A stretch of 52,339 nucleotides of DNA, taken from contig CAMWWH010000001.1 in assembly GCA_947177975.1 (NCBI GenBank), positions 1-52,339 of the forward strand, read 5' to 3'. The notes beneath the pieces are model-generated. The model made no database searches. It was not told where the DNA came from and worked only from the letters and a program-made list of their open reading frames with translations. This stretch comes from an uncultured Clostridia bacterium. GTDB taxonomy: Bacteria > Bacillota > Clostridia > Christensenellales > Borkfalkiaceae. Positions 17,999 through 46,398 of this stretch are shown one piece after another. Every line of letters starts with the position of its first letter. Position 1 is the stretch's first letter. The translations under genes and the position numbers were made by a program.

Positions 17999-18411
17999 CT
18001 GATTTACAGGTTGCGAAGAATAACCTCGCGGGGCATACCATTTGCCTTTGCAAGGGCGGGGAATGTATTTACAGCGTAAGGCGCGGCATTGCGCCTATTA
18101 TGGGGTTTATCGAAAGCGGAGTCGATTTAAGGGGATATTCGGTTGCGGACGTGGTCGTCGGCAAGGCGGCGGCTTTGATGTTCGTCAAGTGCGGAATAAC
18201 TCACGTCTTCGCCAAAACTCTTTCCGAATACGGTAAAAGCGTGTTGGAGCTTTACGGCTTGGATTACGAATACGGAATACTGACCGAAAGAATAATCAAC
18301 CGCGAGGGTACGGACACGTGTCCTATGGAGAAGACCGTAATGCATACCGCCGACCCCGAAGCGGCGTACGAATTATTGAAAAATAAACTGTCCGAACTCA
18401 AGAGCCGATAG
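17995..18411 (+). CDS. DUF1893 (TM1506-like) family protein
   Basis: ATGA overlap with the AKR stop. 138 aa. The pattern LCKGGECIYSVRRGIAPIMGFI, VADVVVGKAAALMFV, GTDTCPMEK matches my recollection of the DUF1893 family. The assignment is from memory. Confidence 0.6.
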   Translation: MTDLQVAKNNLAGHTICLCKGGECIYSVRRGIAPIMGFIESGVDLRGYSVADVVVGKAAALMFVKCGITHVFAKTLSEYGKSVLELYGLDYEYGILTERIINREGTDTCPMEKTVMHTADPEAAYELLKNKLSELKSR

Positions 18412-18428
18412 TGTATATCGAAATTTCG

Positions 18429-18465
18429 GGGAACTCGCAATTTTTGCGGGTTCCTTTTATTTTCC
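18429..18465 (+). terminator. Rho-independent terminator
   Basis: Stem GGGAACTCGC / GCGGGTTCCT with loop AATTTTT, followed by TTTATTTT. Confidence 0.7.
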
Positions 18466-18499
18466 GTGTGTTCGCGGTAAAATAAACGCAATTTCGCGC

Positions 18500-18529
18500 T
18501 TGCGGGTGACTTGCGTATTGCCGTATAAT
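18500..18529 (+). promoter_or_regulatory. Candidate promoter TTGCGG-18-TATAAT of the phosphoesterase/nuclease cassette
   Basis: TTGCGG at 18500-18505 and TATAAT at 18524-18529. A strong SD (AAGGAGG) precedes ATG 18554. Confidence 0.45.
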
Positions 18530-18553
18530 ATAAATTAGGCAAGGAGGTAAACT

Positions 18554-19240
18554 ATGATTTACGTAACAGGCGATACTCACGGATTACAGGACTACTTTAA
18601 ACTGCATATATTTGCGGGGCAACACCCCGAACTCACCAAGGACGACTATGTGATAATTGCGGGCGATTTCGGCGGGGTCTGGGACAGTAAGACATTGGCT
18701 GCCGATATAAAGCCTTATACCGAGCTTCCGTTCACTGTGCTTTTCGTGGACGGCAATCACGAAAATTTCGACCTCTTGGAAACCTTTCCCGTCGAGGAAT
18801 GGCACGGCGGTAAGGTGCATAAAATCAGACCCGACGTCATTCATCTTATGCGCGGTCAGATTTTCGAGATAGAGGGAAAGACCTTTTTCACCTTCGGCGG
18901 CGCGACGAGCATAGATAAGTTTATGCGCAGAGAGGGCATAAGCTGGTGGGCGCAGGAGCTACCCACTTTCGAGGAGCTCGACGAGGGTGTTGCCAACCTC
19001 AAACGCATTGGCGGCAAGGTGGACTATATTATCACGCATTCGTGCGGTGAGCGCGCTCTCACGTACCCGCAGATAAGAATTGCGGCGGGCGTCAAAACGG
19101 CTTGCCCCGAAACTCATATACTGTCTAATTTCGAGGACTTCGTCGATTTCAAGCACTGGTACTTCGGGCACTTCCATACCGACGCGCGGCTGGGCGACAA
19201 GTACACCGCACTCTATCACGAAATTGTGGGGATAGAATAA
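18554..19240 (+). CDS. Calcineurin-like metallophosphoesterase
   Basis: Motifs MIYVTGDTHG, IIAGDFGG, VDGNHEN, ITHS, GHFH. 228 aa. Confidence 0.85.
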   Translation: MIYVTGDTHGLQDYFKLHIFAGQHPELTKDDYVIIAGDFGGVWDSKTLAADIKPYTELPFTVLFVDGNHENFDLLETFPVEEWHGGKVHKIRPDVIHLMRGQIFEIEGKTFFTFGGATSIDKFMRREGISWWAQELPTFEELDEGVANLKRIGGKVDYIITHSCGERALTYPQIRIAAGVKTACPETHILSNFEDFVDFKHWYFGHFHTDARLGDKYTALYHEIVGIE

Positions 19241-19707
19241 TGAAAGTCGTTTTTTTGGATATAGACGGAGTGTTGAACTCGCGCATTTACGACAGAAAGA
19301 GGAATCTTCACGAAATGAGCAATATTGACGAATCGCGGATTCCGCTGGTTAAAAAGATAGTCGACCGCACGGGGGCGAAGATTGTTTTAAGCTCGACGTG
19401 GAGGGAACACTGGGATAAGGTTGCGGATAAGTGCGGCGAAGACGGCGTTTACATAAACCGTACTTTTGCGAAGTTCGGGCTTGAAATTTACGACAAGACG
19501 CCCGACCTCGGCAGTGACTTCGACCGCCCCGACGAGATAAAGGCGTGGCTCGGCTCTGCAAAGGAGTGCGTCGAGAGCTTTGTTATTATAGACGATTACC
19601 GCTATGCGTGGGCGGAGCTTTCGGATAAGTTTGTGAAGACCAATCCGCACTTCGGTCTGGGGCTTGAAGAAGAGCACGTTTTAAAAGCAATTGAAATCCT
19701 CGGATAA
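19240..19707 (+). CDS. Small HAD-superfamily phosphatase-like protein
   Basis: TAATG overlap with the upstream gene. HAD motif I is FLDIDGVLN, motif II is LSSTW, and the acidic motif is FVIIDDY. 155 aa. Confidence 0.75.
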   Translation: MKVVFLDIDGVLNSRIYDRKRNLHEMSNIDESRIPLVKKIVDRTGAKIVLSSTWREHWDKVADKCGEDGVYINRTFAKFGLEIYDKTPDLGSDFDRPDEIKAWLGSAKECVESFVIIDDYRYAWAELSDKFVKTNPHFGLGLEEEHVLKAIEILG

Positions 19708-19793
19708 TACTTTATAAAAAGGTGAGCCGAAAGTTTTACAAAAGAAAGGAAATTAAAAACAAGTTCCAACTTGAAGAGATGAATTAAATAAAA

Positions 19794-20951
19794 ATGATTA
19801 ACTACAGTATTTTGCGCGGAAAAGATAAAATAGGTGAAAATTTAATCGAGATTTCTTACGGTGAAACACGTATTCTGGTTGAACTCGGCAAATCGTTGGA
19901 CGGAAGCGGCGAAGACCTCGAAAAGGAAATTTTGCAAAAACGCTACTCGGCAGTAGTCGTGTCGCACTATCACGAGGACCACGCGGGACTTATTAAATAC
20001 AAGCGCGACTGCCCCGTATATATCGGCAACGGCGCATACCGCATAGTCAAAACCGCGGCGGAGTATCGCGGCGAAATAACGCCCGAAAATATTTTAACCT
20101 ACCGTAACGGCAGGTCGTTCGAAGTCGGCGGTATAAAAATTACGCCATATCTTTGCGACCATTCCGCATACGACAGCTATATGCTCTTATTCGAGGCGGG
20201 CGGCAGAAGCATTTTATACACGGGCGACTTCCGTTTTCACGGCAGAAAGGATAAGGAAAAACTGCTTGCCGCTTTGCCCGAGAGGGTCGACGTCCTCATA
20301 CACGAGGGAACGAATATCGGTAAAAACGCTTGCACCTTAACCGAAAGCGAACTGGAAAACAAGGCGGTTGAAATTATGCAGGCAACCGATAAGCCCGTGT
20401 TCGTATTGCAGTCTGCCGCGAATATCGACAGGCTTGTCAGCGTGTACCGCGCAAGCAAGAGAAGCGGCAGGATTATGTATATGGATAACTATACCTCGCT
20501 CATTGCCGAGGCGGCGGGCGGGAAAATTCCCCGACCCGATAAATTCGACGACGTAATCGCTTTCACTCCGCGAGCCGTTCGCGGTAAGCGCGGGGAAGCC
20601 TTTTTGAAAATCAAGAACAAACGCGGGTTAAACGGCATTACCAAAGGCACGAAGCGTTATACAATGCTCGTGCGCGCGTCAATGGCGGATTATATCAAAA
20701 AACTCGATTCGGCGGCGCATATATGCGGGGCAACGCTCATTTACTCTATCTGGAAGGGCTATAAAAACGACAAATATACTGCGGAATTTCTAAGCGCAAT
20801 GGCGGAGCTTGGGATAAATATCGTCGACCTGCACACGAGCGGACACGCTGCGGCGGAGGATATCGAACTGTTAAAACGTACGGTGTGCGCCGAGGAAATT
20901 GTTTGCGTGCATACGGAATTTTGTTATAATGTAAAAAAGGACGGAGTATGA
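19794..20951 (+). CDS. Metallo-beta-lactamase fold hydrolase with beta-CASP-type motifs (predicted nuclease)
   Basis: HYHEDH (aa 58-63, nt 19965-19982), CDHS, TGDF, then HEGT / TSGH / VHTE in the positions of beta-CASP motifs A/B/C. 385 aa. The SD is weak. Confidence 0.8.
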   Translation: MINYSILRGKDKIGENLIEISYGETRILVELGKSLDGSGEDLEKEILQKRYSAVVVSHYHEDHAGLIKYKRDCPVYIGNGAYRIVKTAAEYRGEITPENILTYRNGRSFEVGGIKITPYLCDHSAYDSYMLLFEAGGRSILYTGDFRFHGRKDKEKLLAALPERVDVLIHEGTNIGKNACTLTESELENKAVEIMQATDKPVFVLQSAANIDRLVSVYRASKRSGRIMYMDNYTSLIAEAAGGKIPRPDKFDDVIAFTPRAVRGKRGEAFLKIKNKRGLNGITKGTKRYTMLVRASMADYIKKLDSAAHICGATLIYSIWKGYKNDKYTAEFLSAMAELGINIVDLHTSGHAAAEDIELLKRTVCAEEIVCVHTEFCYNVKKDGV

Positions 20952-21766
20952 GTTTTATAAGAGATTTCAATCGGACGCAGATAAATAAAATGACAAGCGG
21001 CGAAAACTCGGAGCTTTTTAACCGCCTTAAAGCCGACGTGCTGAGAGGCGAGGTCTTTCCCGCCGTCCGCAAAGACGAACTGCATTTTTATTATAAGGGC
21101 GGTTGTCTGCACAAGTTCAGCGGCGGCTCGTTTAAAAGGGACAAAAATTTTGAAAAATTCGGCGCGGATTTCAAGGAACTTCCCGCTTACGAAAGGGCGA
21201 AAAAGGAAAACGAAATCAAGTTTACGAATACCTGCGGCAAGGAAAAAGAGCGTAGGCTTTTGGACAAACTGTGTTCCCGCACCTTTACTACGCATAGCGG
21301 CGGGGTTGTGGTTCTCGATATAGAAGTCAATCTTAACGGCGAAGTCGGGCGCGGACAGAAGTGCGATTTGGTGCTGTTGAATACGCAGACGGACGAGCTT
21401 ATGTTCGTCGAAGGCAAAGTGTTTTCCGACCGCCGCGTAAACGTTTCGCCGCCGAACATTCCCGAGGTGATAGCTCAGGTAGACACGTATACCGCGGCAA
21501 TCGCAGAGCAACGGCATATTATACCGGAGCAGTACGCGAGGCATATAGGAATAATAAACCGGCTTTTCGGCACGGCGTACAATCCGCCCCGAAGATTGAT
21601 TGAACCCGCCAAGCTGCTTGTTTACGACGTCCCCGAAAGCCCGACGGCAAACGGCGGATACAGCATAAACACGATAAACGCGCGGCTGGGTGAAAGAAAC
21701 GTATTATGGGTTAAAGCGGGCGGCGAACCCGCGCTTGAAAGCATCTGGAATTTATTGACGGAGTAA
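20948..21766 (+). CDS. Hypothetical protein with PD-(D/E)xK nuclease core plus QxxxY motif (RecB/Cas4/Shedu-like)
   Basis: ATGA overlap with the MBL gene. KCD140LVLLNTQTDELMFVE155GK157 is followed by IAQ177VDTY181. The preceding helix is EKERRLLDKL and the preceding strand is VVVLDIEV. Confidence 0.6.
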   Translation: MSFIRDFNRTQINKMTSGENSELFNRLKADVLRGEVFPAVRKDELHFYYKGGCLHKFSGGSFKRDKNFEKFGADFKELPAYERAKKENEIKFTNTCGKEKERRLLDKLCSRTFTTHSGGVVVLDIEVNLNGEVGRGQKCDLVLLNTQTDELMFVEGKVFSDRRVNVSPPNIPEVIAQVDTYTAAIAEQRHIIPEQYARHIGIINRLFGTAYNPPRRLIEPAKLLVYDVPESPTANGGYSINTINARLGERNVLWVKAGGEPALESIWNLLTE

Positions 21767-21771
21767 AATAT

Positions 21772-23277
21772 TCAATACAGTAAGACCGTGCCCTCGGGGA
21801 GGGTGAAGTGCGGGGTGTTGACCTTGCGGAAATACATACTGTCCTCGCGGTAGGTGCGGTGGAAGATTATATACACGCGCGCATGCGGATATAACGCGGC
21901 GACGTTCTCTTTGAGAGCGTCGTAGGCCATAAGCTTGTTGGCAACCTCGAAATTCAAATCCACGCACACCGTTTCGGCGCCCTCCGAAAGCGTTTGCAAA
22001 AGCTTTGCACGGAATTCCGCGAGGATACTTTCGTGCGAGCGTATTACGCCCGCGCCGTGGCACGCTCCGCAGGTTTTAAGCATAAGCTCGGACGCCGCAA
22101 CTCCCGTGCGTTTTCTGGTAAACTCCACAAGTCCGAACTTCGACATGGGCAGAACGCGGCACTTGGACTTGTCGGCGCGCAGCGCTTTTTCCAGCTCGGT
22201 AACGATGGCGGCACGGTGGTTTTCCTCGGTCATATCGATAAAGTCCACGACGAACAGTCCGCCCATATCCCGAAGCTTGATCTGCCTTGCAATCTCTCTC
22301 GCCGCCAAGACGTTGGTGCAGTACACCGTGTGTTCGAGACTGTCCTCGCCCGTGAACTTGCCTGTGTTTACGTCGATTACGGTCAGCGCCTCGGTGCGGT
22401 CGATTATAAGATACGCGCCGTTCGAAAGCTCGACCTTCTGCATAAGCGCAGTCATGAACTGCTCGTAAATTCCCGCCGAATAGAATAAATCGGTATGAGC
22501 GTCGTGCAGCGTCAGCTTTACCGCATTGCCGTGCATATAGGTTGCGGCAAGCCCCTCGATGCTCTTGTATATCTGCTCGCAACCTACGAATATCTCGTCG
22601 CCTCTGTCCAGCATAATATCGCGTAAAACGCGTATATGCAGGGGGGAATCGCTGTATAAAAGCTCTCCGACGGGCGCTTCTTTAAAGCGCGTGAGAATGT
22701 TTTCGTATATTTTGCGGAAGTAATCTATCTCGTTTTTCTTGGTGCTAATAACGGCGTACGGCGCTGCGGTGCGCACTATCATGCCCTCGCCCTCGTTGAG
22801 CTGTTTTTTCGCGCTGAACGTCAGGTTTTTTCTCAGCTCCTTGTCGGATATCTTTGCCGAAACGCCGACGAAAGGAGTGTCGGGTAAATACACGATATAC
22901 TTGCCGACGAAGGATAAGCGGGTGGTGACCTTCGCGCCCTTTTTGCCCTGCGCCGCCTTGGTTACTTGAACTAAGATTTCGTCGCCCTCGTGCAGGTTGA
23001 GCGTTTGCGGAATATCTATTTCGCCGCCCTCGAATCTGGATTTGTCGGGGATTAAATCTGCGACCGAGATATAGCAGTGGCGCTCTAAACCGCAGTCGAC
23101 GAAAGCCGCCTGCATACCGTTTAAAACGTTGGTCACTTTGCCCTTGTAGATATTGCCGATAACCGCGCCGCTCATTACGGGCTCGGCGTTGTATTCGGTT
23201 ATTTTTCCGTCCTCTAAGAGGGCGAAAGTTTCTATTCCGTACTGACTGTCGAAATATAATTTCCTATGCACGTGCAT
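21772..23277 (-). CDS. rng: Ribonuclease G/E family endoribonuclease
   Basis: S1 domain (GNIYKGKVTNVLNGMQAAFVDCG) and the RNase E/G catalytic core (IIDRTEALTVIDVNTGKF, DFIDM). The ORF reaches GTG 23301, but ATG 23277 has AAGAGG upstream. Confidence 0.9.
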   Translation of the reverse strand: MHVHRKLYFDSQYGIETFALLEDGKITEYNAEPVMSGAVIGNIYKGKVTNVLNGMQAAFVDCGLERHCYISVADLIPDKSRFEGGEIDIPQTLNLHEGDEILVQVTKAAQGKKGAKVTTRLSFVGKYIVYLPDTPFVGVSAKISDKELRKNLTFSAKKQLNEGEGMIVRTAAPYAVISTKKNEIDYFRKIYENILTRFKEAPVGELLYSDSPLHIRVLRDIMLDRGDEIFVGCEQIYKSIEGLAATYMHGNAVKLTLHDAHTDLFYSAGIYEQFMTALMQKVELSNGAYLIIDRTEALTVIDVNTGKFTGEDSLEHTVYCTNVLAAREIARQIKLRDMGGLFVVDFIDMTEENHRAAIVTELEKALRADKSKCRVLPMSKFGLVEFTRKRTGVAASELMLKTCGACHGAGVIRSHESILAEFRAKLLQTLSEGAETVCVDLNFEVANKLMAYDALKENVAALYPHARVYIIFHRTYREDSMYFRKVNTPHFTLPEGTVLLY

Positions 23278-23303
23278 AAACCTCTTGAATTTTTTACTCA
23301 CTA

Positions 23304-23421: not shown

Positions 23422-23856
23422 ATGAAATACGATTTCAGAGGTATTACCACGGAAGAACTCAGCTATAAGCTTAACAGAGTTCAGATTGCACCCAACCAGA
23501 GGCTGGATATAAAGCCTCAGTTCGCGCGTCAGGTGCGTAAGCCCAACGACAACAAAAAGCTCGTGTTCATTTCCCTTGCGGTTAAAATCGAAAGCACCGA
23601 GCAGGAGCCCAAGCCCTTCAACCTCGACGTAAACCTCGTAGGCGTTTACGAGCTCGAAAAGGAGGACTACACCCAGCAGGAAGAGAGAGCGTTCGTTATC
23701 GAGGCTACGCAGTCGCTCTATCCTTACCTCCGCGCGGCGGTTACAAACCTTACGGCTCAGGCGTACGTTTCGCCCCTCAATCTGCCCGTACTCAACGGAC
23801 CTATCTTCCCCGAGGACAGAGACGTTTACGCATTTGCTCCCGGCGACGTGAACTGA
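23422..23856 (+). CDS. SecB-like chaperone family protein
   Basis: 144 aa. The segment FNLDVNLVGVYELE...SLYPYLRAAVTNLTAQAYVSPLNLPVLNG aligns by eye with E. coli SecB FLCEVQQAGIFSI...[29 protein letters not shown]. Confidence 0.7.
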   Translation: MKYDFRGITTEELSYKLNRVQIAPNQRLDIKPQFARQVRKPNDNKKLVFISLAVKIESTEQEPKPFNLDVNLVGVYELEKEDYTQQEERAFVIEATQSLYPYLRAAVTNLTAQAYVSPLNLPVLNGPIFPEDRDVYAFAPGDVN

Positions 23857-24181: not shown

Positions 24182-27127
24182 ATGAAAAAGACAAAGAGAG
24201 CGTTGCTTACGGCAATTGCATGTTCGGCGGCGCTTGCCGCAGCATTCGGACTTGCCGCATGTAACGGAGACAACGGCGGCGACGAAGGCGTGACACCCCC
24301 GCCCGCGCACGATCACAATTATGTGAATTGGCAGAGCAACGGTGACGGAACTCACACGGGTACTTGCAACAACACTGTAGGCACTTGCGACAAACAGACC
24401 GAGACCGAAGATTGCGACGAGTTGGGCAAAGACGGAGTGGACGGAGCTTGCTCGAAGTGCGGCTACAAAGAAGAAGACAGAACGGCTACCGTTGCTCTCG
24501 GCACGGATAAGGCTGTTGCAAGCCTTGATACGACGGGCTTGACGTTAACCTTAGAGGGCGTAGAGGCGGGCACGTCATACACGCTGTCGTGCACGAACGA
24601 CAAGGTTAAATTTATCGTCGGCACAGAGCAAGGCAACCCCGTAGATTTCGTATACAATAAGTTCCTTAATATATACGTAATATCGACCGAGGGGACTCTT
24701 ACAAACGTGACCTTAAAGCTTGAAGAAACGCCCGAGCCCGAGTTTGCGGCAATTTCTTTGAACGATGAAGTAACGGTTGAGGGCGCGAGTGAATTTGAAC
24801 CCGTGAAGTACGAAATCGAGCTTGCTCAGGGTCAGTATCAGATATTTATCGACGGAGAGGCGATAACCCTCGATATGTCGGCGCCCGTCGGAATAGGCGT
24901 TTACGTAGAAGGTCAGTTCGAATATCTTAACAATATCGACGAAATAACCGTCGAAGTGGGCGAGGGAAAGTATTATATCGAGGCGTACGATAACGTTACC
25001 TTTAAGGTTGCCGTAGCTTCCGTGCATACTCACGTCTGGAGTTGGGAAGTAACGGATACTCCCACGGCGGAAGGAACGGGTACTGCCACGAGAACGTGTG
25101 CGGGCACCGTAGGTGAATGCGGCTGGGAAGAAGATGATTTGTCGGTTGAATTGCCTGCGCTCGACGACGAGGAGTATACCGTCGGCAAGGACAGCGCAAC
25201 CTGTGAGGCTGCGGGCACGCAAACTTACAGTATAACTAAAGACGGCAAGGTCGTAACATTCGAAATAGATACGCCGCAAAAAACGATGGAGTTGACTAAG
25301 GTTACCTCGGGTTTAACCGGAAGTATATCTCTTCCTTCGGGAAGCTCTATTTCGCTGACAACCGTATCACATTACAAGTGCAATGGATGCGGTAAGACTT
25401 TCCATCAGTATGGTAGCTTAGCCGACGAAGCAAGACACACGGAAGAGAACGAAATCACTATTCTCACAAAAGCCAGTAGCAATATATCTGTCGGAAGTTC
25501 AACGACTTTTAACGGACCCGTGCGGTTGGGCGACAACAGAGTATATATATCCACCAAGGGCGGCGTTTTATTTAAAGCCGAAGAGGACGGTGTTTATAAA
25601 TTCAGTTCCGAAAACGCAACAAAGCTGTTTGGATTAATTTATTACGGCACAACCGAATCTGGTACTACTCCTTCAATAGTTTACAAATCAGGCACCACCT
25701 TAGATAATACCGCAAAACAGTATAGCAGATTTAACTATACAAGTTTCACGGACACGACCGTTTACGTAAGAATGAATGCGGGCGACGTAGTGGGTGTAGC
25801 ATATAATGCCAGCGTGAAGGCAGTCGACGTTAACGTTGAAAAGATTACCGACACCAGCACGCTTGATTGCTATGCGCATTCCGAGGCGTACGACGTTTCA
25901 GGCTTTGACGTAAACGGCGGCACCTTTAAATATCAGTGTGCTCTGTGCGGCAAGGAAGCAGACGGATTAGATAGCAAAAAACCTATAGTCTATACGAGTG
26001 GCGCAGTCGTTAATGAAGCTAACGAAAGTTCGCCCGTAGCTATTACGGAAAATACTTTGGCCGTTAAAACGAGCGTTGCTACGGGTACGTATTATTCGTT
26101 CACCCCGAGTGAGGCAAAGGATTACGAAATCACGTTCGATACCGTCCTTGTCGGAAATACGCTTACATTGAAGGGCATTAAGTGCGGCGACAACACGGCG
26201 GCGTCTTACGATACCGCGTTGACCGTCAACTCTGCGTTCAGAAGTATTATCTATGTTGAAAGAAGTGCAACCGGCACGATTGTAACCCTTAAAATCTCTG
26301 CAGATAACGTCGGAAAGCCGTTCACGTTCAACTTTGACGTGGCAGGCGCAAGTGAGGATAGCCCCGCATATCTGACGAGCGTAGTAAAATCTGACTTGCC
26401 TAAATTCATCGGCGAAGGCGAGAGCACGGTAAATATTGCCGCGGCGTATGAATTCTCCGAAAATTACTACTTCGTTTCGGCAGAGGGCGGCAAGTTCTCG
26501 TTAACCGTTCCCGAAGGCGTTGAAGTGCTTATGAACGGCGGTGAATTTATAACGGATGACGGTTCGCGTGCGGCTAACTTCACTGTTTCTGCCGGCGTAA
26601 GAATCGGATTCACGTTTAAACACAGCGGCGGTTCTACTGGTGATATAACCGTTACCGTAGGTGAGCCCGTTGAAGAAACTTTGCCGACCGTTACTACCGA
26701 GGGAACCACGATAGTAACTCTTCCTGTAAAGTCGGGTATGACAGGCGACTTTGTCGGAGCCGTTGGGCTTGCTCAGGTTGGTGCGATCAAGTCCGGCAAG
26801 TACACGTTGACCGTTAAGATGAGCCCGATTTTAAGCGGTTGCTATATTGCTTTTGCAAAGGGTCAAGATGAAGTTACCTATTTCGATTTCTTTGATAATA
26901 CCGGTAACGTTAGGACGGACGAGGATGCGGCGACGGAAGCTTACGTTCTTACGGTAGATTACTCTACCGCAACTGTAGAAGGCGTGGATTATACGGTTAC
27001 CGGTGACGTAAGAACCGTCACTTGGACGATAACGCTTGATTTGGCGGAAGGTGACATCTTAGTGTTTGCAAACGGCGGTTTATCTAAAGGAGATATTACT
27101 TTGTCTTTGGCAACAGTATCAGAATAA
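24182..27127 (+). CDS. Large surface lipoprotein with Cys-rich modules and repeated beta-sandwich-like segments, function unknown
   Basis: Lipobox LAAC. Strong SD AAGGAG. Four Cys-containing modules, for example [36 protein letters not shown]-x-Y-x-hydrophobic signature recurs. Confidence 0.8.
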
Positions 27128-44535: not shown

Positions 44536-46398
44536 ATGGAAATGGAAAACAAGCCCGCGCAAAAGGAAAAATTCAAGCGGCGCGGCAAAAATCAGAATAC
44601 GGCTACGGGTGAGAGCCGCGGCGACAAACGCGAAAAGCAAAAAGGTAACCCTAAAAAGAGTGCCGTAAAGCCTGTCGCCGCCGAGCGGAACAAACAGCCC
44701 AAACCCGTGCACGAGCGCAAGATTAAACCCGAAAAGAAGCAGAAAGCTCCAAAGAACGCGGTAAAAATCATATTTTTGGGCGGCGTCGGCGAAATCGGTA
44801 AGAATATGACCGCCTTGGAGTGCGGCGACGACATAATAATAATCGACGCAGGCATTATCTTCCCCACCGAGGAAACTCCGGGTATAGACCTCGTAGCGCC
44901 CGATATAACCTATTTAATAGAAAATAAGAAGAAGCTGCGCGCACTGTTTTTAACGCATGGTCACGAGGACCACATAGGCGGCGTACCCTATCTTTTAAAA
45001 GAAGTGGACGTGCCTGTCGTTGCGACCAAGCTCACCCTTGCGCTGGTTGACAACAAGCTGCGCGAACACCGTTTAAATAACGTTAAGGAAAAAGTTATCG
45101 CCCCTCACGACAGCTATCAGGCGGGCTGTTTTAAGGTGGATTTCATCAACGTAAACCACTCGATAGCGGGCGCGGTCGCGCTGTGCATACACACTCCACA
45201 GGGCGTAATTTTCCATAGCGGCGACTTTAAAATCGACTTAACTCCCGTCGCGGGCGAGCCGATAGATTTGAAATCTATCGCCGATATAGGCAGTAAGGGC
45301 GTGCTTTTGTATATGGGCGAGAGCACAAATATCGAGCGCCCCGGTTTTACTATGAGCGAGGCGGTCGTTGCCGAAACGCTGGACAGGCTGTTCGACGAAA
45401 ACAAGACCCGCCGCATAATAATTGCGACGTTCGCCTCCAACGTGCACAGACTGCAACAGATTATTGATTTGGCGGTAAAGTACAGGCGCAAGGTGGCGCT
45501 CAACGGCAGAAGTATGTTAAACGTCGTCGAGGCGGCGGAAAAGATAGGCGAAATGTCGGTTGCTGAAGGCGCAATCGTCGATATAACCAAGACGAAAAAT
45601 CTGCGCGACGACGAGGTTGTTATCGTCTGCACGGGCAGTCAGGGCGAGCCTATGAGCGCGTTAACGCGTATGTCTAACGGTGAAAACCCGCTTATTACGG
45701 TCGGTGAAAACGACACGATTATTATTTCCGCGTCGCCTATCCCCGGCAACGAGCGCGGCATTTACGGCGTTATCAACAAGCTGTACCATCTCGGCGCGGA
45801 CGTAGTTTACGAGAGCCTTGAAAAAATTCACGTATCTGGGCACGCTTGTCAGGAAGAGCACAAAATTCTGCACACTCTGTTAAAGCCGAAATTCTTCGTG
45901 CCCGTGCACGGCGAGTACCGCCATCTTAAAAAGCACTCGCAGCTTGCGCAGACCTTGGGTATGAACGAGCGTAATATCTTCCTTGCCGATATAGGCAATT
46001 GCTTGGAAGTGACGAGCAAGTATATCAAAAGGCTTGCGGACGTGCCGTCGGGCTCGCGCCTTATAGACGGCGAGGGCATAGAGGACGAGAAGGCTTCGGT
46101 TGTTATGCAGGACAGACGTCAGCTCGCCGCCGAGGGCTTGTTCATCGTGTCCGTGGCGGTGTCGGGCGGCGAGGTAATAGGCGAGCCCGCAATAAACTCC
46201 CGCGGGTTCGTGTTCGATTTTCACCACGACTATAACCGCGAAATGCGCGAGGTCATAAACCGCGCCATTCAAGGCTACGATTTGTCCGTCGGTACGGTGG
46301 ACGAACTTAAGCGCATTATTAAAAAATCGCTCAGAAATTACTTACAGAAGAAGACCAAGCAATCCCCTATGGTAGTGCCGGTCGTCGTGGAACTTTAA
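44536..46398 (+). CDS. rnj: Ribonuclease J (MBL/beta-CASP) with a roughly 75-aa Lys-rich N-terminal extension
   Basis: VKIIFLGGVGEIGKNMTALE, LTHGHEDHIGG, SGDFK, SGHACQEE, and a C-terminal domain. The extension spans aa 1-75. Confidence 0.93.
   Translation: MEMENKPAQKEKFKRRGKNQNTATGESRGDKREKQKGNPKKSAVKPVAAERNKQPKPVHERKIKPEKKQKAPKNAVKIIFLGGVGEIGKNMTALECGDDIIIIDAGIIFPTEETPGIDLVAPDITYLIENKKKLRALFLTHGHEDHIGGVPYLLKEVDVPVVATKLTLALVDNKLREHRLNNVKEKVIAPHDSYQAGCFKVDFINVNHSIAGAVALCIHTPQGVIFHSGDFKIDLTPVAGEPIDLKSIADIGSKGVLLYMGESTNIERPGFTMSEAVVAETLDRLFDENKTRRIIIATFASNVHRLQQIIDLAVKYRRKVALNGRSMLNVVEAAEKIGEMSVAEGAIVDITKTKNLRDDEVVIVCTGSQGEPMSALTRMSNGENPLITVGENDTIIISASPIPGNERGIYGVINKLYHLGADVVYESLEKIHVSGHACQEEHKILHTLLKPKFFVPVHGEYRHLKKHSQLAQTLGMNERNIFLADIGNCLEVTSKYIKRLADVPSGSRLIDGEGIEDEKASVVMQDRRQLAAEGLFIVSVAVSGGEVIGEPAINSRGFVFDFHHDYNREMREVINRAIQGYDLSVGTVDELKRIIKKSLRNYLQKKTKQSPMVVPVVVEL

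Follow-up and report, generated by a model that had tools for sequence, protein, structure and literature searches.

Several described systems come close to the genes investigated in this study. Pnkp/Hen1 is known as an RNA repair system. According to those passages of PMC7824862 that refer to Burroughs and Aravind (2016), a stand-alone HAD enzyme of the Swiss-army-knife type is predicted to act as a phosphatase for linear phosphates on RNA ends, a role which is sometimes filled by calcineurin-like enzymes. In the field of defence, nucleases of the metallo-beta-lactamase (MBL) fold serve as effectors in the HamM and trypsin-MBL modules of Hachiman, AVAST and Lamassu, where the HamM-type MBLs are ComEC-like proenzymes that become activated by a fused trypsin-like protease (PMC12799240, PMC13069673). 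Within the searchable literature and the defence systems of PADLOC v2 (2023), we found no described defence pair consisting of a beta-CASP enzyme and a PD-(D/E)xK nuclease, the only related entries being ComEC-like MBL modules and Cas14. Here we have analysed a stretch of 3.3 kb at positions 18429-21766 of contig CAMWWH010000001.1, of which positions 1-52,339 constitute the window, that is the whole stretch of DNA under study with its 52,339 nucleotides. The region contains four genes, which a preliminary description had regarded as a single cassette of phosphoesterases and nucleases:

18554-19240, forward strand: gene 1, 228 residues, calcineurin-like metallophosphoesterase
19240-19707, forward strand: gene 2, 155 residues, stand-alone HAD phosphatase of the HAD_SAK_2 family
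19794-20951, forward strand: gene 3, 385 residues, short beta-CASP MBL nuclease, EF2904/RNase J-like
20948-21766, forward strand: gene 4, 272 residues, novel family with a PD-(D/E)xK-like core

Our results show that these genes form two independent two-gene modules located side by side and not a single system. Both genes of module A (genes 1 and 2) can be assigned to known families as ordinary new members. As to genes 3 and 4 (module B), we see an even chance that they constitute an unnamed two-nuclease module of conflict or defence, which in the window would be juxtaposed with phosphoesterase cargo of a mobile element.

The separation of both modules is reflected in the comparison of 223 related loci (32 from genomes, 80 from metagenomes, 90 from viruses and 21 further contexts), where an all-against-all check identified the window as the only locus containing both pairs. 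None of the 127 loci with a relative of gene 4 encodes a homologue of gene 1 or gene 2, and the reverse search was equally negative, with no homologue of gene 3 or gene 4 in the 96 loci that contain a relative of gene 1 or gene 2 (80 viral contigs with a gene 1 relative, 10 with a gene 2 relative, and the loci L041-L046). Similarly, no homologue of the first two genes was found within 6-10 kb in the 32 genome loci and in the contexts L001-L008 of gene 4, and both are missing next to the closest inspected relatives of the latter, which are 63-71% identical. The preliminary description had made its four-gene cassette dependent on the co-localisation of the genes in other genomes, and because such co-localisation is absent in related loci, we reject the four-gene system. 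The region thus shows how genes with the look of a tidy operon may have come together by chance, and two genes instead of four are left as the target of an experiment.

The association between genes 3 and 4 is recurrent. An MBL adjoins the gene 4 homologue in 28 of 31 informative loci of Clostridia (32 were examined, one contig being too short), with both gene orders observed and mostly overlapping open reading frames (ORFs), and in 47 of 57 informative loci of a metagenome scan. In the clade closest to the window, the MBL gene precedes gene 4 and its product is about 75% identical to the protein of the window, while a larger clade of Clostridia shows the reversed order with overlapping ORFs and identities of about 30% for the MBL and about 55% for gene 4. 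In the distant members L047, L049, L050, L132 and L133, the relative of gene 4 is directly followed by the gene of an MBL from this same family, and the Rhizobium phaseoli plasmid pRphaN671a carries the pair in the order MBL to gene 4. The pair is thus spread over Bacillota, Bacteroidota, Desulfobacterota and a Rhizobium plasmid, and in one protein of 818 residues (P0252) both parts are naturally fused, with MBL-RMMBL joined to the gene 4 domain. The partner is not invariant, as the MBL is replaced by a nuclease of the REase-ARP/PDDEXK_13 type in five of the ten metagenome exceptions and in Macellibacteroides (L048). This alternative partner is encoded downstream of the gene 4 relative in the following Bacteroidota-type loci:

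L048, 6849-7748: REase-ARP/PDDEXK_13-type partner
L179, 7423-8322: REase-ARP/PDDEXK_13-type partner
L185, 846-1742: REase-ARP/PDDEXK_13-type partner
L187, 2562-3587: REase-ARP/PDDEXK_13-type partner
L211, 664-1731: REase-ARP/PDDEXK_13-type partner
L183, 7793-8158: REase-ARP/PDDEXK_13-type partner

Because the MBL is exchanged in these loci, gene 4 is the constant component of the module and its nuclease partner is exchangeable. It is very probable that genes 3 and 4 act as a functional two-nuclease unit. Of the novel nuclease module proposed in the preliminary description, it is this unnamed pair that stands, while the presumed end-processing accessories have to be abandoned, since the phosphoesterase pair is linked to it in none of the 223 related loci other than the window. 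Split ORFs in L001 (4750-5982), L031 (10801-12023) and L039 (9995-12025), which reflect frameshifts or assembly errors, suggest that the module is dispensable and decaying in some lineages. As further variations, some close relatives carry Sel1 repeats as an N-terminal fusion, either of the MBL (L006, 4358-5983) or of the gene 4 protein (P0241), and a second, unrelated MBL gene is found in convergent orientation just downstream in L006 and L010.

Although both modules are separate in other genomes, the organisation of the window would allow for a different view, which concerns the following features:

18428-18465, forward strand: intrinsic-terminator-like hairpin, the hairpin itself spanning 18428-18456 (13-bp stem with 6 G-C pairs, tail TTATTTT)
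18501-18546, forward strand: possible promoter and ribosome-binding site of gene 1 (-35 TTGCGG at 18501-18506, -10 TATAAT at 18525-18530, AGGAGG at 18541-18546)
19680-19793, forward strand: end of gene 2 and A/T-rich spacer of 86 nucleotides, a putative module boundary
21772-23301, convergent to genes 1-4: gene of RNase E/G (RNase G, rng)

The terminator-like hairpin closes an upstream metabolic operon, with the stop of its DUF1893 gene located at 18411. The start of gene 2 overlaps with the stop of gene 1 (TAATG, 19238-19242), the start of gene 4 with the stop of gene 3 (ATGA, 20948-20951), and only 5 nucleotides (21767-21771) separate the end of gene 4 from the stop of rng. Coordinates, sequence and a hairpin scan confirm what had previously been reported on the ORFs, both overlaps, the upstream terminator and the distance to rng. 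The promoter placed at 18500-18529 is more ambiguous, since its -10 element (TATAAT, 18525-18530) is perfect but the site was not called by a consensus scan and the best -35 element (TTGCGG) matches at only three of six positions.

Based on this arrangement, the four genes might be viewed as one functional operon in this organism, where the nucleases would cut and the phosphoesterases trim the resulting 3'-phosphate or cyclic-phosphate ends, as part of an attack-and-process or damage-response cassette. The genes share one strand between a terminator and a convergent gene, all four products act on phosphoesters, and related Clostridia carry both modules on mobile elements that also bear Sel1 and Clp_N genes. 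Moreover, genes 1-4 may be co-transcribed in the window because the spacer that separates gene 2 from gene 3 was free of terminators in a scan of the sequence. This view conflicts with the uniqueness of the four-gene arrangement among the 223 loci, with its absence even in the closest inspected relatives of gene 4, and with the self-contained nature of each pair elsewhere. Additionally, gene 3 is preceded by a sequence resembling a promoter (TTTAAA-17-GATAAT, 19680-19708), which coincides with the end of gene 2 and would make two separate transcription units possible. We thus consider a joint function of the four genes as highly improbable; module A may here share a promoter with module B and nothing more.

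The properties of module A are those of established enzyme families. Gene 1 scores with 35.4 bits against the Metallophos profile PF00149 (cut-off 21.5, E=1.9e-8) and contains the metal-binding motifs GDTHG, GDFGG, GNHEN and GHFH, and it thus combines both features by which we define a calcineurin-like enzyme, a profile match above the curated cut-off and the motifs GDxHG, GDxxxG/DR, GNHE and GH. In PHROGs it matches phrog_1649 (E=5.7e-38), and the 345 relatives detected in viral contigs of IMG/VR illustrate that the type is common in phages. Gene 2 is a genuine member of HAD_SAK_2 (PF18143, 'HAD domain in Swiss Army Knife RNA repair proteins'), with 92.6 bits compared to a cut-off of 27.5 (E=3.7e-26, 135 of 139 profile positions) and with the motifs DIDGV (HAD motif I), SSTW and IIDD (acidic motif IV). 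It also matches phrog_1818 and has 1849 homologues. Neither gene 1 nor gene 2 has a sequence match in the PDB. The families that had been assigned from motifs consequently hold for both genes, as they do for gene 3 with its match to Lactamase_B_2 and a weak match to RMMBL, and all motifs quoted for the four proteins, from the calcineurin, HAD and MBL/beta-CASP motifs to the nuclease core, are found in the translations. In contrast, the statement that the cassette has no named counterpart applies to gene 4 but not to gene 2, which is covered by a Pfam family, or to gene 1 with its counterpart phrog_1649.

A homologue of gene 2 adjoins a homologue of gene 1, in either order, in the loci L043-L046, which are integrative or conjugative elements of related Clostridia and whose copies in L043 and L045 are 67-73% identical to the proteins of the window. 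Of two unrelated mobile-element contexts, one contains a tyrosine integrase, Mrr, ASCH and an FtsZ-like gene, the other TraG, FtsK-gamma, FtsZ/Clp_N, ASCH and a serine recombinase. In a third context the homologue of gene 2 stands alone, and in phages relatives of genes 1 and 2 are each found without the other. From this distribution we infer that module A is cargo of mobile elements. Its enzymes would act on nucleotides or on the ends of RNA, from which they would strip phosphates in terminal or cyclic form, and this activity could confer end-healing or the clearing of signals to the benefit of the element. A search of genes 1-4, of the ten flanking genes scanned and of L041-L046 for an RNA ligase, polynucleotide kinase, Hen1 or RtcB was negative. 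With no ligase, kinase or methyltransferase partner linked to it, module A lacks what is required of an RNA repair operon of the Pnkp/Hen1 or RtcAB type or of a multidomain Swiss-army-knife protein, and from the RNA-damage response considered in the preliminary description only the naming of the gene 2 family remains compatible, as neither a ligase nor a kinase is linked. The elements themselves, which come from gut Clostridia, show a recurrent accessory block (L043, 2688-5477; L045, 1605-6163) that encodes a protein with an FtsK-gamma domain, an ASCH protein and an FtsZ/tubulin-like protein, which is sometimes fused to Clp_N. In L006, Sel1 and Clp_N genes are also found on the flanks of a module B pair.

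Within module B, gene 4 represents a novel family. Its product has no match in Pfam, NCBIfam, PHROGs or PADLOC, where the hit to MTase_II (E=0.009) is at chance level, and none by sequence in the PDB, irrespective of whether the single sequence or a profile was used. We have identified at least 220 homologues in a word-indexed search and 558 clusters at 50% identity in an exhaustive profile search. All close relatives originate from metagenome-assembled genomes of Clostridia and Christensenellaceae, with distant members in Bacteroidota, Smithella and other Gram-negative bacteria. As judged from these sequence comparisons, gene 4 appears to found an undescribed family that extends across several phyla.

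The gene 4 protein consists of an N-terminal domain of unrecognised fold (residues 1-95), followed by a putative PD-(D/E)xK nuclease core with the residues E101, D124, E126, D140, E155-x-K157 (E155-G-K157) and Q177-x3-Y181. E101, D124, E126, D140, E155, K157, Q177 and Y181 are invariant in 23 diverse homologues, as are R5, R41, F47, Y48, G51 and F62 in the N-terminal domain. In a model of AlphaFold 2 calculated from 21 homologues (predicted local distance difference test, pLDDT, of 90), D140 and E155-x-K157 are located on consecutive predicted strands and Q177-x3-Y181 on the next helix. Members of the PD-(D/E)xK superfamily have an alpha-beta-beta-beta-alpha-beta core, where D...(D/E)xK is placed on strands 2 and 3. 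A Foldseek search with this model yielded no significant neighbour (best E=0.05), with PD-(D/E)xK nucleases as leading matches, namely the Shedu nuclease domain, MunI, BstEII, Mus81, SdaI and Card1, and with a similar result in BFVD. Mus81-EME1 and the nuclease of Hef/XPF are also among the weak matches, and relatives of gene 4 show sub-threshold Pfam matches to HSDR_N_2, PDDEXK_11 and VRR_NUC. The modelled fold thus is probably PD-(D/E)xK-like, with leading hits that are weak and a best structural match that is not significant at E=0.05. For the N-terminal domain, a separate model (pLDDT 84) led to no meaningful structural neighbour, and a YdhG-like protein ranked first at E=1.

Among the close relatives listed, about nine carry a DEDD (RNase_T) exonuclease fused to the C-terminus of the gene 4 protein. 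Variants of about 500 residues, comprising P0448 (L133, 827-2329) and about a dozen others such as P0292, P0305, P0325, P0351, P0395 and P0421, contain an extra N-terminal region of about 220 residues, which has no match in Pfam or the PDB, with an MBL still encoded downstream. Neither this N-extended variant nor the REase-ARP-type partner has a match in the PDB.

Gene 3 encodes an MBL of the beta-CASP type. Its Pfam matches to Lactamase_B_2 and, weakly, to RMMBL are accompanied by the motifs HYHEDH, CDHS, TGDF, HEGT, TSGH and VHTE, which provide the MBL residues of the HxHxDH motif at H58-H63 (H58, H60, D62, H63), D122-H123 and D145, and the beta-CASP motifs A (E171), B (H351) and C (H373). 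MBL motifs 1-4 and beta-CASP motifs A, B and C are thus complete, which defines the protein as a beta-CASP nuclease, and no catalytic residue varies among 15 MBL partners, which represent four phyla. The motifs quoted for module B are therefore beyond chance, since the MBL/beta-CASP residues and the D/ExK/QxxxY residues of gene 4 are both invariant across homologues from several phyla. In the PDB, the profile of the gene 3 family finds EF2904 (2az4) as best match, end-to-end with E=9e-38, followed by RNase J, for whose catalytic part E-values range from about 1e-28 to 1e-32, Integrator-11, CPSF73 and Cas14. SNM1A, Apollo and Artemis are weak matches at about 1e-4. Gene 3 hence belongs to the EF2904 branch of beta-CASP enzymes, a branch that is itself uncharacterised. 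We have also considered gene 3 as the housekeeping RNase J but rejected this assignment. The best NCBIfam matches are indeed RNase J models, yet with scores far below the cut-off (69 bits compared to 820 for RNase J1, and 65.8 compared to 400), and the protein is with 385 residues shorter than RNase J with about 555. The true RNase J is encoded elsewhere in the window at 44536-46398 on the forward strand, as a protein of 620 residues that matches RNase J1 of B. subtilis (3zq4) with E=7.5e-143 and carries an N-terminal extension of about 65 residues, and gene 3 is therefore an extra paralogue. The presence of this RNase J and of RNase G (21772-23301) also indicates that the organism is equipped with standard enzymes of RNA decay.

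Its kinship with RNase J raises the question whether module B acts on RNA, either as accessory decay or processing machinery or as a pair of RNases in abortive infection. The RNase J-like enzyme would then degrade RNA after cleavage by its partner, and the placement next to the RNase G gene would be meaningful. In the beta-CASP family, a histidine in motif C is characteristic for enzymes of the RNA type, with valine being found in SNM1/Artemis. The invariant motif C histidine of gene 3, its match to the RMMBL 'RNA specificity' domain and the identity of its closest characterised relatives (RNase J, CPSF73, Integrator-11 and Cas14) fit this proposal, as do the 5 nucleotides between gene 4 and rng and the HAD_SAK_2 protein encoded upstream, which belongs to a family of RNA-end phosphatases. 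However, the adjacency to rng is unique to the window, the genome already has a canonical RNase J and RNase G, and the DEDD fusions and the swap to a REase-type partner point to DNA. In the same direction, most of the PD-(D/E)xK enzymes that contain a QxxxY motif act on DNA. We thus regard a role on RNA as quite unlikely.

The same two folds evoke DNA repair, where module B would be a lineage-spread repair or recombination unit whose structure-specific PD-(D/E)xK enzyme incises damaged or branched DNA that is subsequently resected by the beta-CASP enzyme as 5'-to-3' exonuclease, in analogy to XPF/Mus81 and SNM1A/Artemis. Such a model requires no immunity or sensor gene, and it is in line with the weak Foldseek matches of gene 4 to Mus81-EME1 and Hef/XPF, with the reach of the MBL profile to SNM1A, Apollo and Artemis at about 1e-4, with the chiefly chromosomal, housekeeping-like neighbourhoods in Clostridia and with the ERCC4 gene located directly upstream of the pair in L049. 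It is less easily reconciled with gene 3, whose motif C contains the histidine of the RNA type instead of the valine of SNM1/Artemis and which matches RNase J and EF2904 far better than SNM1. Also, exchange of the partner and pseudogenisation are not what would be expected from core repair genes, the location differs even between related genomes, and certain copies are carried by a mobilisable element or a plasmid or are embedded in defence islands. On balance, a function in repair appears unlikely.

The position of module B is variable, and two loci hardly ever have neighbours of the pair in common, even in related genomes. In phyla other than those of the Clostridia-type hosts, its neighbours are often defence genes, as in the following loci:

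L048: AIPR, Vsr, DEAD helicase and RhuM
L049: WYL, ParD, Clp, AAA, ERCC4, HigB and DEAD/MZB helicase
L050: patatin, Mrr and DUF676-CTD8
L131: restriction-modification methylases, GIY-YIG nuclease and MobF

Retron reverse transcriptases, UzuA, type IIG restriction-modification, integrases and DUF3987 are found among the pooled neighbours of loci from the distant clade. In L049 (2438-8140, Smithella), a Clp protease, a winged-helix AAA+ protein and the ERCC4 nuclease precede the pair on the same strand. The arrangement recurs in L201 and L202 and may represent a larger five-gene system.

Some of these surroundings could also indicate that module B serves mobile elements, as a module of counter-defence, entry-exclusion or addiction that degrades nucleic acids of the host or of competitors, with the copy in the window and genes 1 and 2 being the remnant of stranded cargo. 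The closest clade includes a copy on a mobilisable element beside Mob_Pre, Sel1 and Clp_N genes, the Rhizobium copy is located near a MobF relaxase, integrases and DUF3987 are among the neighbours, and elements carry genes 1 and 2 as cargo in L043-L046. Conversely, the majority of copies reside on chromosomes and have no genes of mobile elements in the surrounding 6-10 kb, and the census of mobile DNA is nearly empty. No relative of gene 4 was detected in 2.9 million viral contigs searched with patterns of the close clade, the gene 4 protein of the window has no match among 72,556 plasmids, and the single plasmid type in this set that contains a distant family member is represented by two near-identical Rhizobium records. 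In the window, the region is devoid of flanking att-like repeats, a composition shift or a tRNA, and it shows no similarity to plasmids at the DNA level. A service to mobile elements thus has at best a slim chance to account for module B.

We return to the reading of module B as a conflict or defence module, where the gene 3 and gene 4 proteins are envisaged to form a complex, as would be predicted from the fusion protein P0252. Beta-CASP enzymes among the relatives of RNase J and SNM1 combine endonuclease with 5'-to-3' exonuclease activity. The PD-(D/E)xK protein encoded by gene 4 would be the constant subunit, which recognises foreign or aberrant nucleic acid with its N-terminal domain and nicks or cuts it, and its partner, in most cases the beta-CASP enzyme, would degrade the target from the newly generated end, resulting in the restriction of phages, plasmids and other invaders. 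We infer complex formation, substrates, division of labour and the role in defence from sequence and context. In a more specific version, the pair would constitute an unnamed immune system spanning several phyla, where a novel sensing domain at the N-terminus permits gene 4 to license an exchangeable effector nuclease, be it the beta-CASP MBL, the REase-ARP-type nuclease or an added DEDD exonuclease, and which operates with no NTPase, methylase or signalling component. We put this version forward tentatively, at somewhat less than even chances.

Several observations weigh against a role in defence. The pair lacks a linked gene for a sensor NTPase, a methyltransferase or immunity, and the discrimination between self and non-self is left unexplained in every version of the model. 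The motif C histidine of gene 3 and its RMMBL match point to RNA rather than DNA by the literature on beta-CASP enzymes, the four genes may still be co-transcribed in the window, and the gene 4 family is nearly absent from the viral contigs and plasmids searched. Genes 1-4 are flanked by housekeeping genes in the window, and 147 nearest neighbours in Clostridia are mostly metabolic or housekeeping genes, with defence neighbours restricted to one AbiE pair, PDC-M13 and PDC-M10. In the other phyla, 204 PADLOC models were matched among 149 neighbouring genes with no background comparison, and because of this missing control the enrichment in defence genes is suggestive only. The check for defence islands suggested in the preliminary description accordingly gave a divided answer, with frequent defence neighbours in other phyla and few in Clostridia. 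The defence idea itself may be plausible for genes 3 and 4, as far as their sequences and surroundings allow to judge, but not for the four genes as a unit.

We found no known system that covers the locus. In PADLOC-DB v2 (2023), genes 1-3 have no match and no system is matched by the region, and distant orthologues of gene 4, their partners and the fusion protein are equally unmatched. The module is not a restriction-modification system, as no methyltransferase is encoded by genes 1-4 or in most loci, and those methylases that occur in L131 are part of an adjacent system.

The remainder of the window adds few further features. It contains no Rfam element. Adjoining rng is a gene for a small SecB-like protein (23422-23856, forward strand; PF02556, E=5.8e-9), in a genome of the Clostridia type. 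Outside Proteobacteria, SecB-like chaperones are often part of toxin-antitoxin-chaperone systems. Between this gene and the nusG-rplK cluster, a predicted lipoprotein of 981 residues (24182-27127, forward strand) is encoded, which contains an N-terminal signal, a lipobox-like sequence and a cysteine-rich segment.

Collectively, our study has defined a gene 4 family of 558 clusters at 50% identity in several phyla, for which neither a model in Pfam, NCBIfam or PADLOC nor a solved relative exists, and its almost constant association with a beta-CASP nuclease, for which EF2904, an orphan target of structural genomics, is the best relative of solved structure. If the pair acts in defence, it would represent a minimal, NTPase-free architecture of two nucleases with a swappable effector, and beta-CASP enzymes of the EF2904 type would gain a function. 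Gene 3 and its orthologous partners align with EF2904 from end to end, but gene 3 comes with a PD-(D/E)xK-like partner. To RNase J, gene 3 is related by alignment with the catalytic part and by the complete set of MBL and beta-CASP motifs, but it is much shorter and lacks the C-terminal dimerisation domain.

For module A, the comparison leads to the HAD Swiss-army-knife and calcineurin-like enzymes of RNA repair, with gene 2 as a bona fide member of PF18143 that has stand-alone counterparts in large phages, and with gene 1 from a family whose members can perform the same step of end-healing. Its activity is predicted, and the ligase, kinase, Hen1 and RtcB proteins of Pnkp/Hen1-like systems are missing here and in L041-L046. 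Among defence systems, module B resembles the HamM and trypsin-MBL modules in the use of an MBL-fold nuclease as effector encoded beside a defence protein, but its MBL is of the beta-CASP/RNase J type, its partner is a PD-(D/E)xK-like nuclease with no match in PADLOC, and the lack of a protease domain in gene 4 and its relatives sets it apart from the HamM type. The defence protein Shedu (SduA/DUF4263) joins an N-terminal sensing domain to a PD-(D/E)xK nuclease. Its general layout resembles that of gene 4, where a novel N-terminal domain precedes a core that is probably PD-(D/E)xK-like, and its nuclease domain (8ti9) is the best structural match, though not a significant one (E=0.05, template modelling scores of 0.26-0.33). 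Gene 4 has no DUF4263 match in Pfam even at E<=10 and no match to Shedu in PADLOC, which places it outside this family. Moreover, one gene suffices for Shedu, in contrast to gene 4, which requires another nuclease as partner. From XPF/Mus81 and SNM1A/Artemis, which process cross-links and DNA ends in eukaryotes, module B differs by the absence of detectable orthology, by the histidine instead of valine in motif C of gene 3 and by a context that is prokaryotic, mobile and patchy. Common to both would be the cooperation of a PD-(D/E)xK-type endonuclease with a beta-CASP exonuclease, and in case module B were to act in repair or RNA decay, it would be a bacterial counterpart of this eukaryotic partnership.

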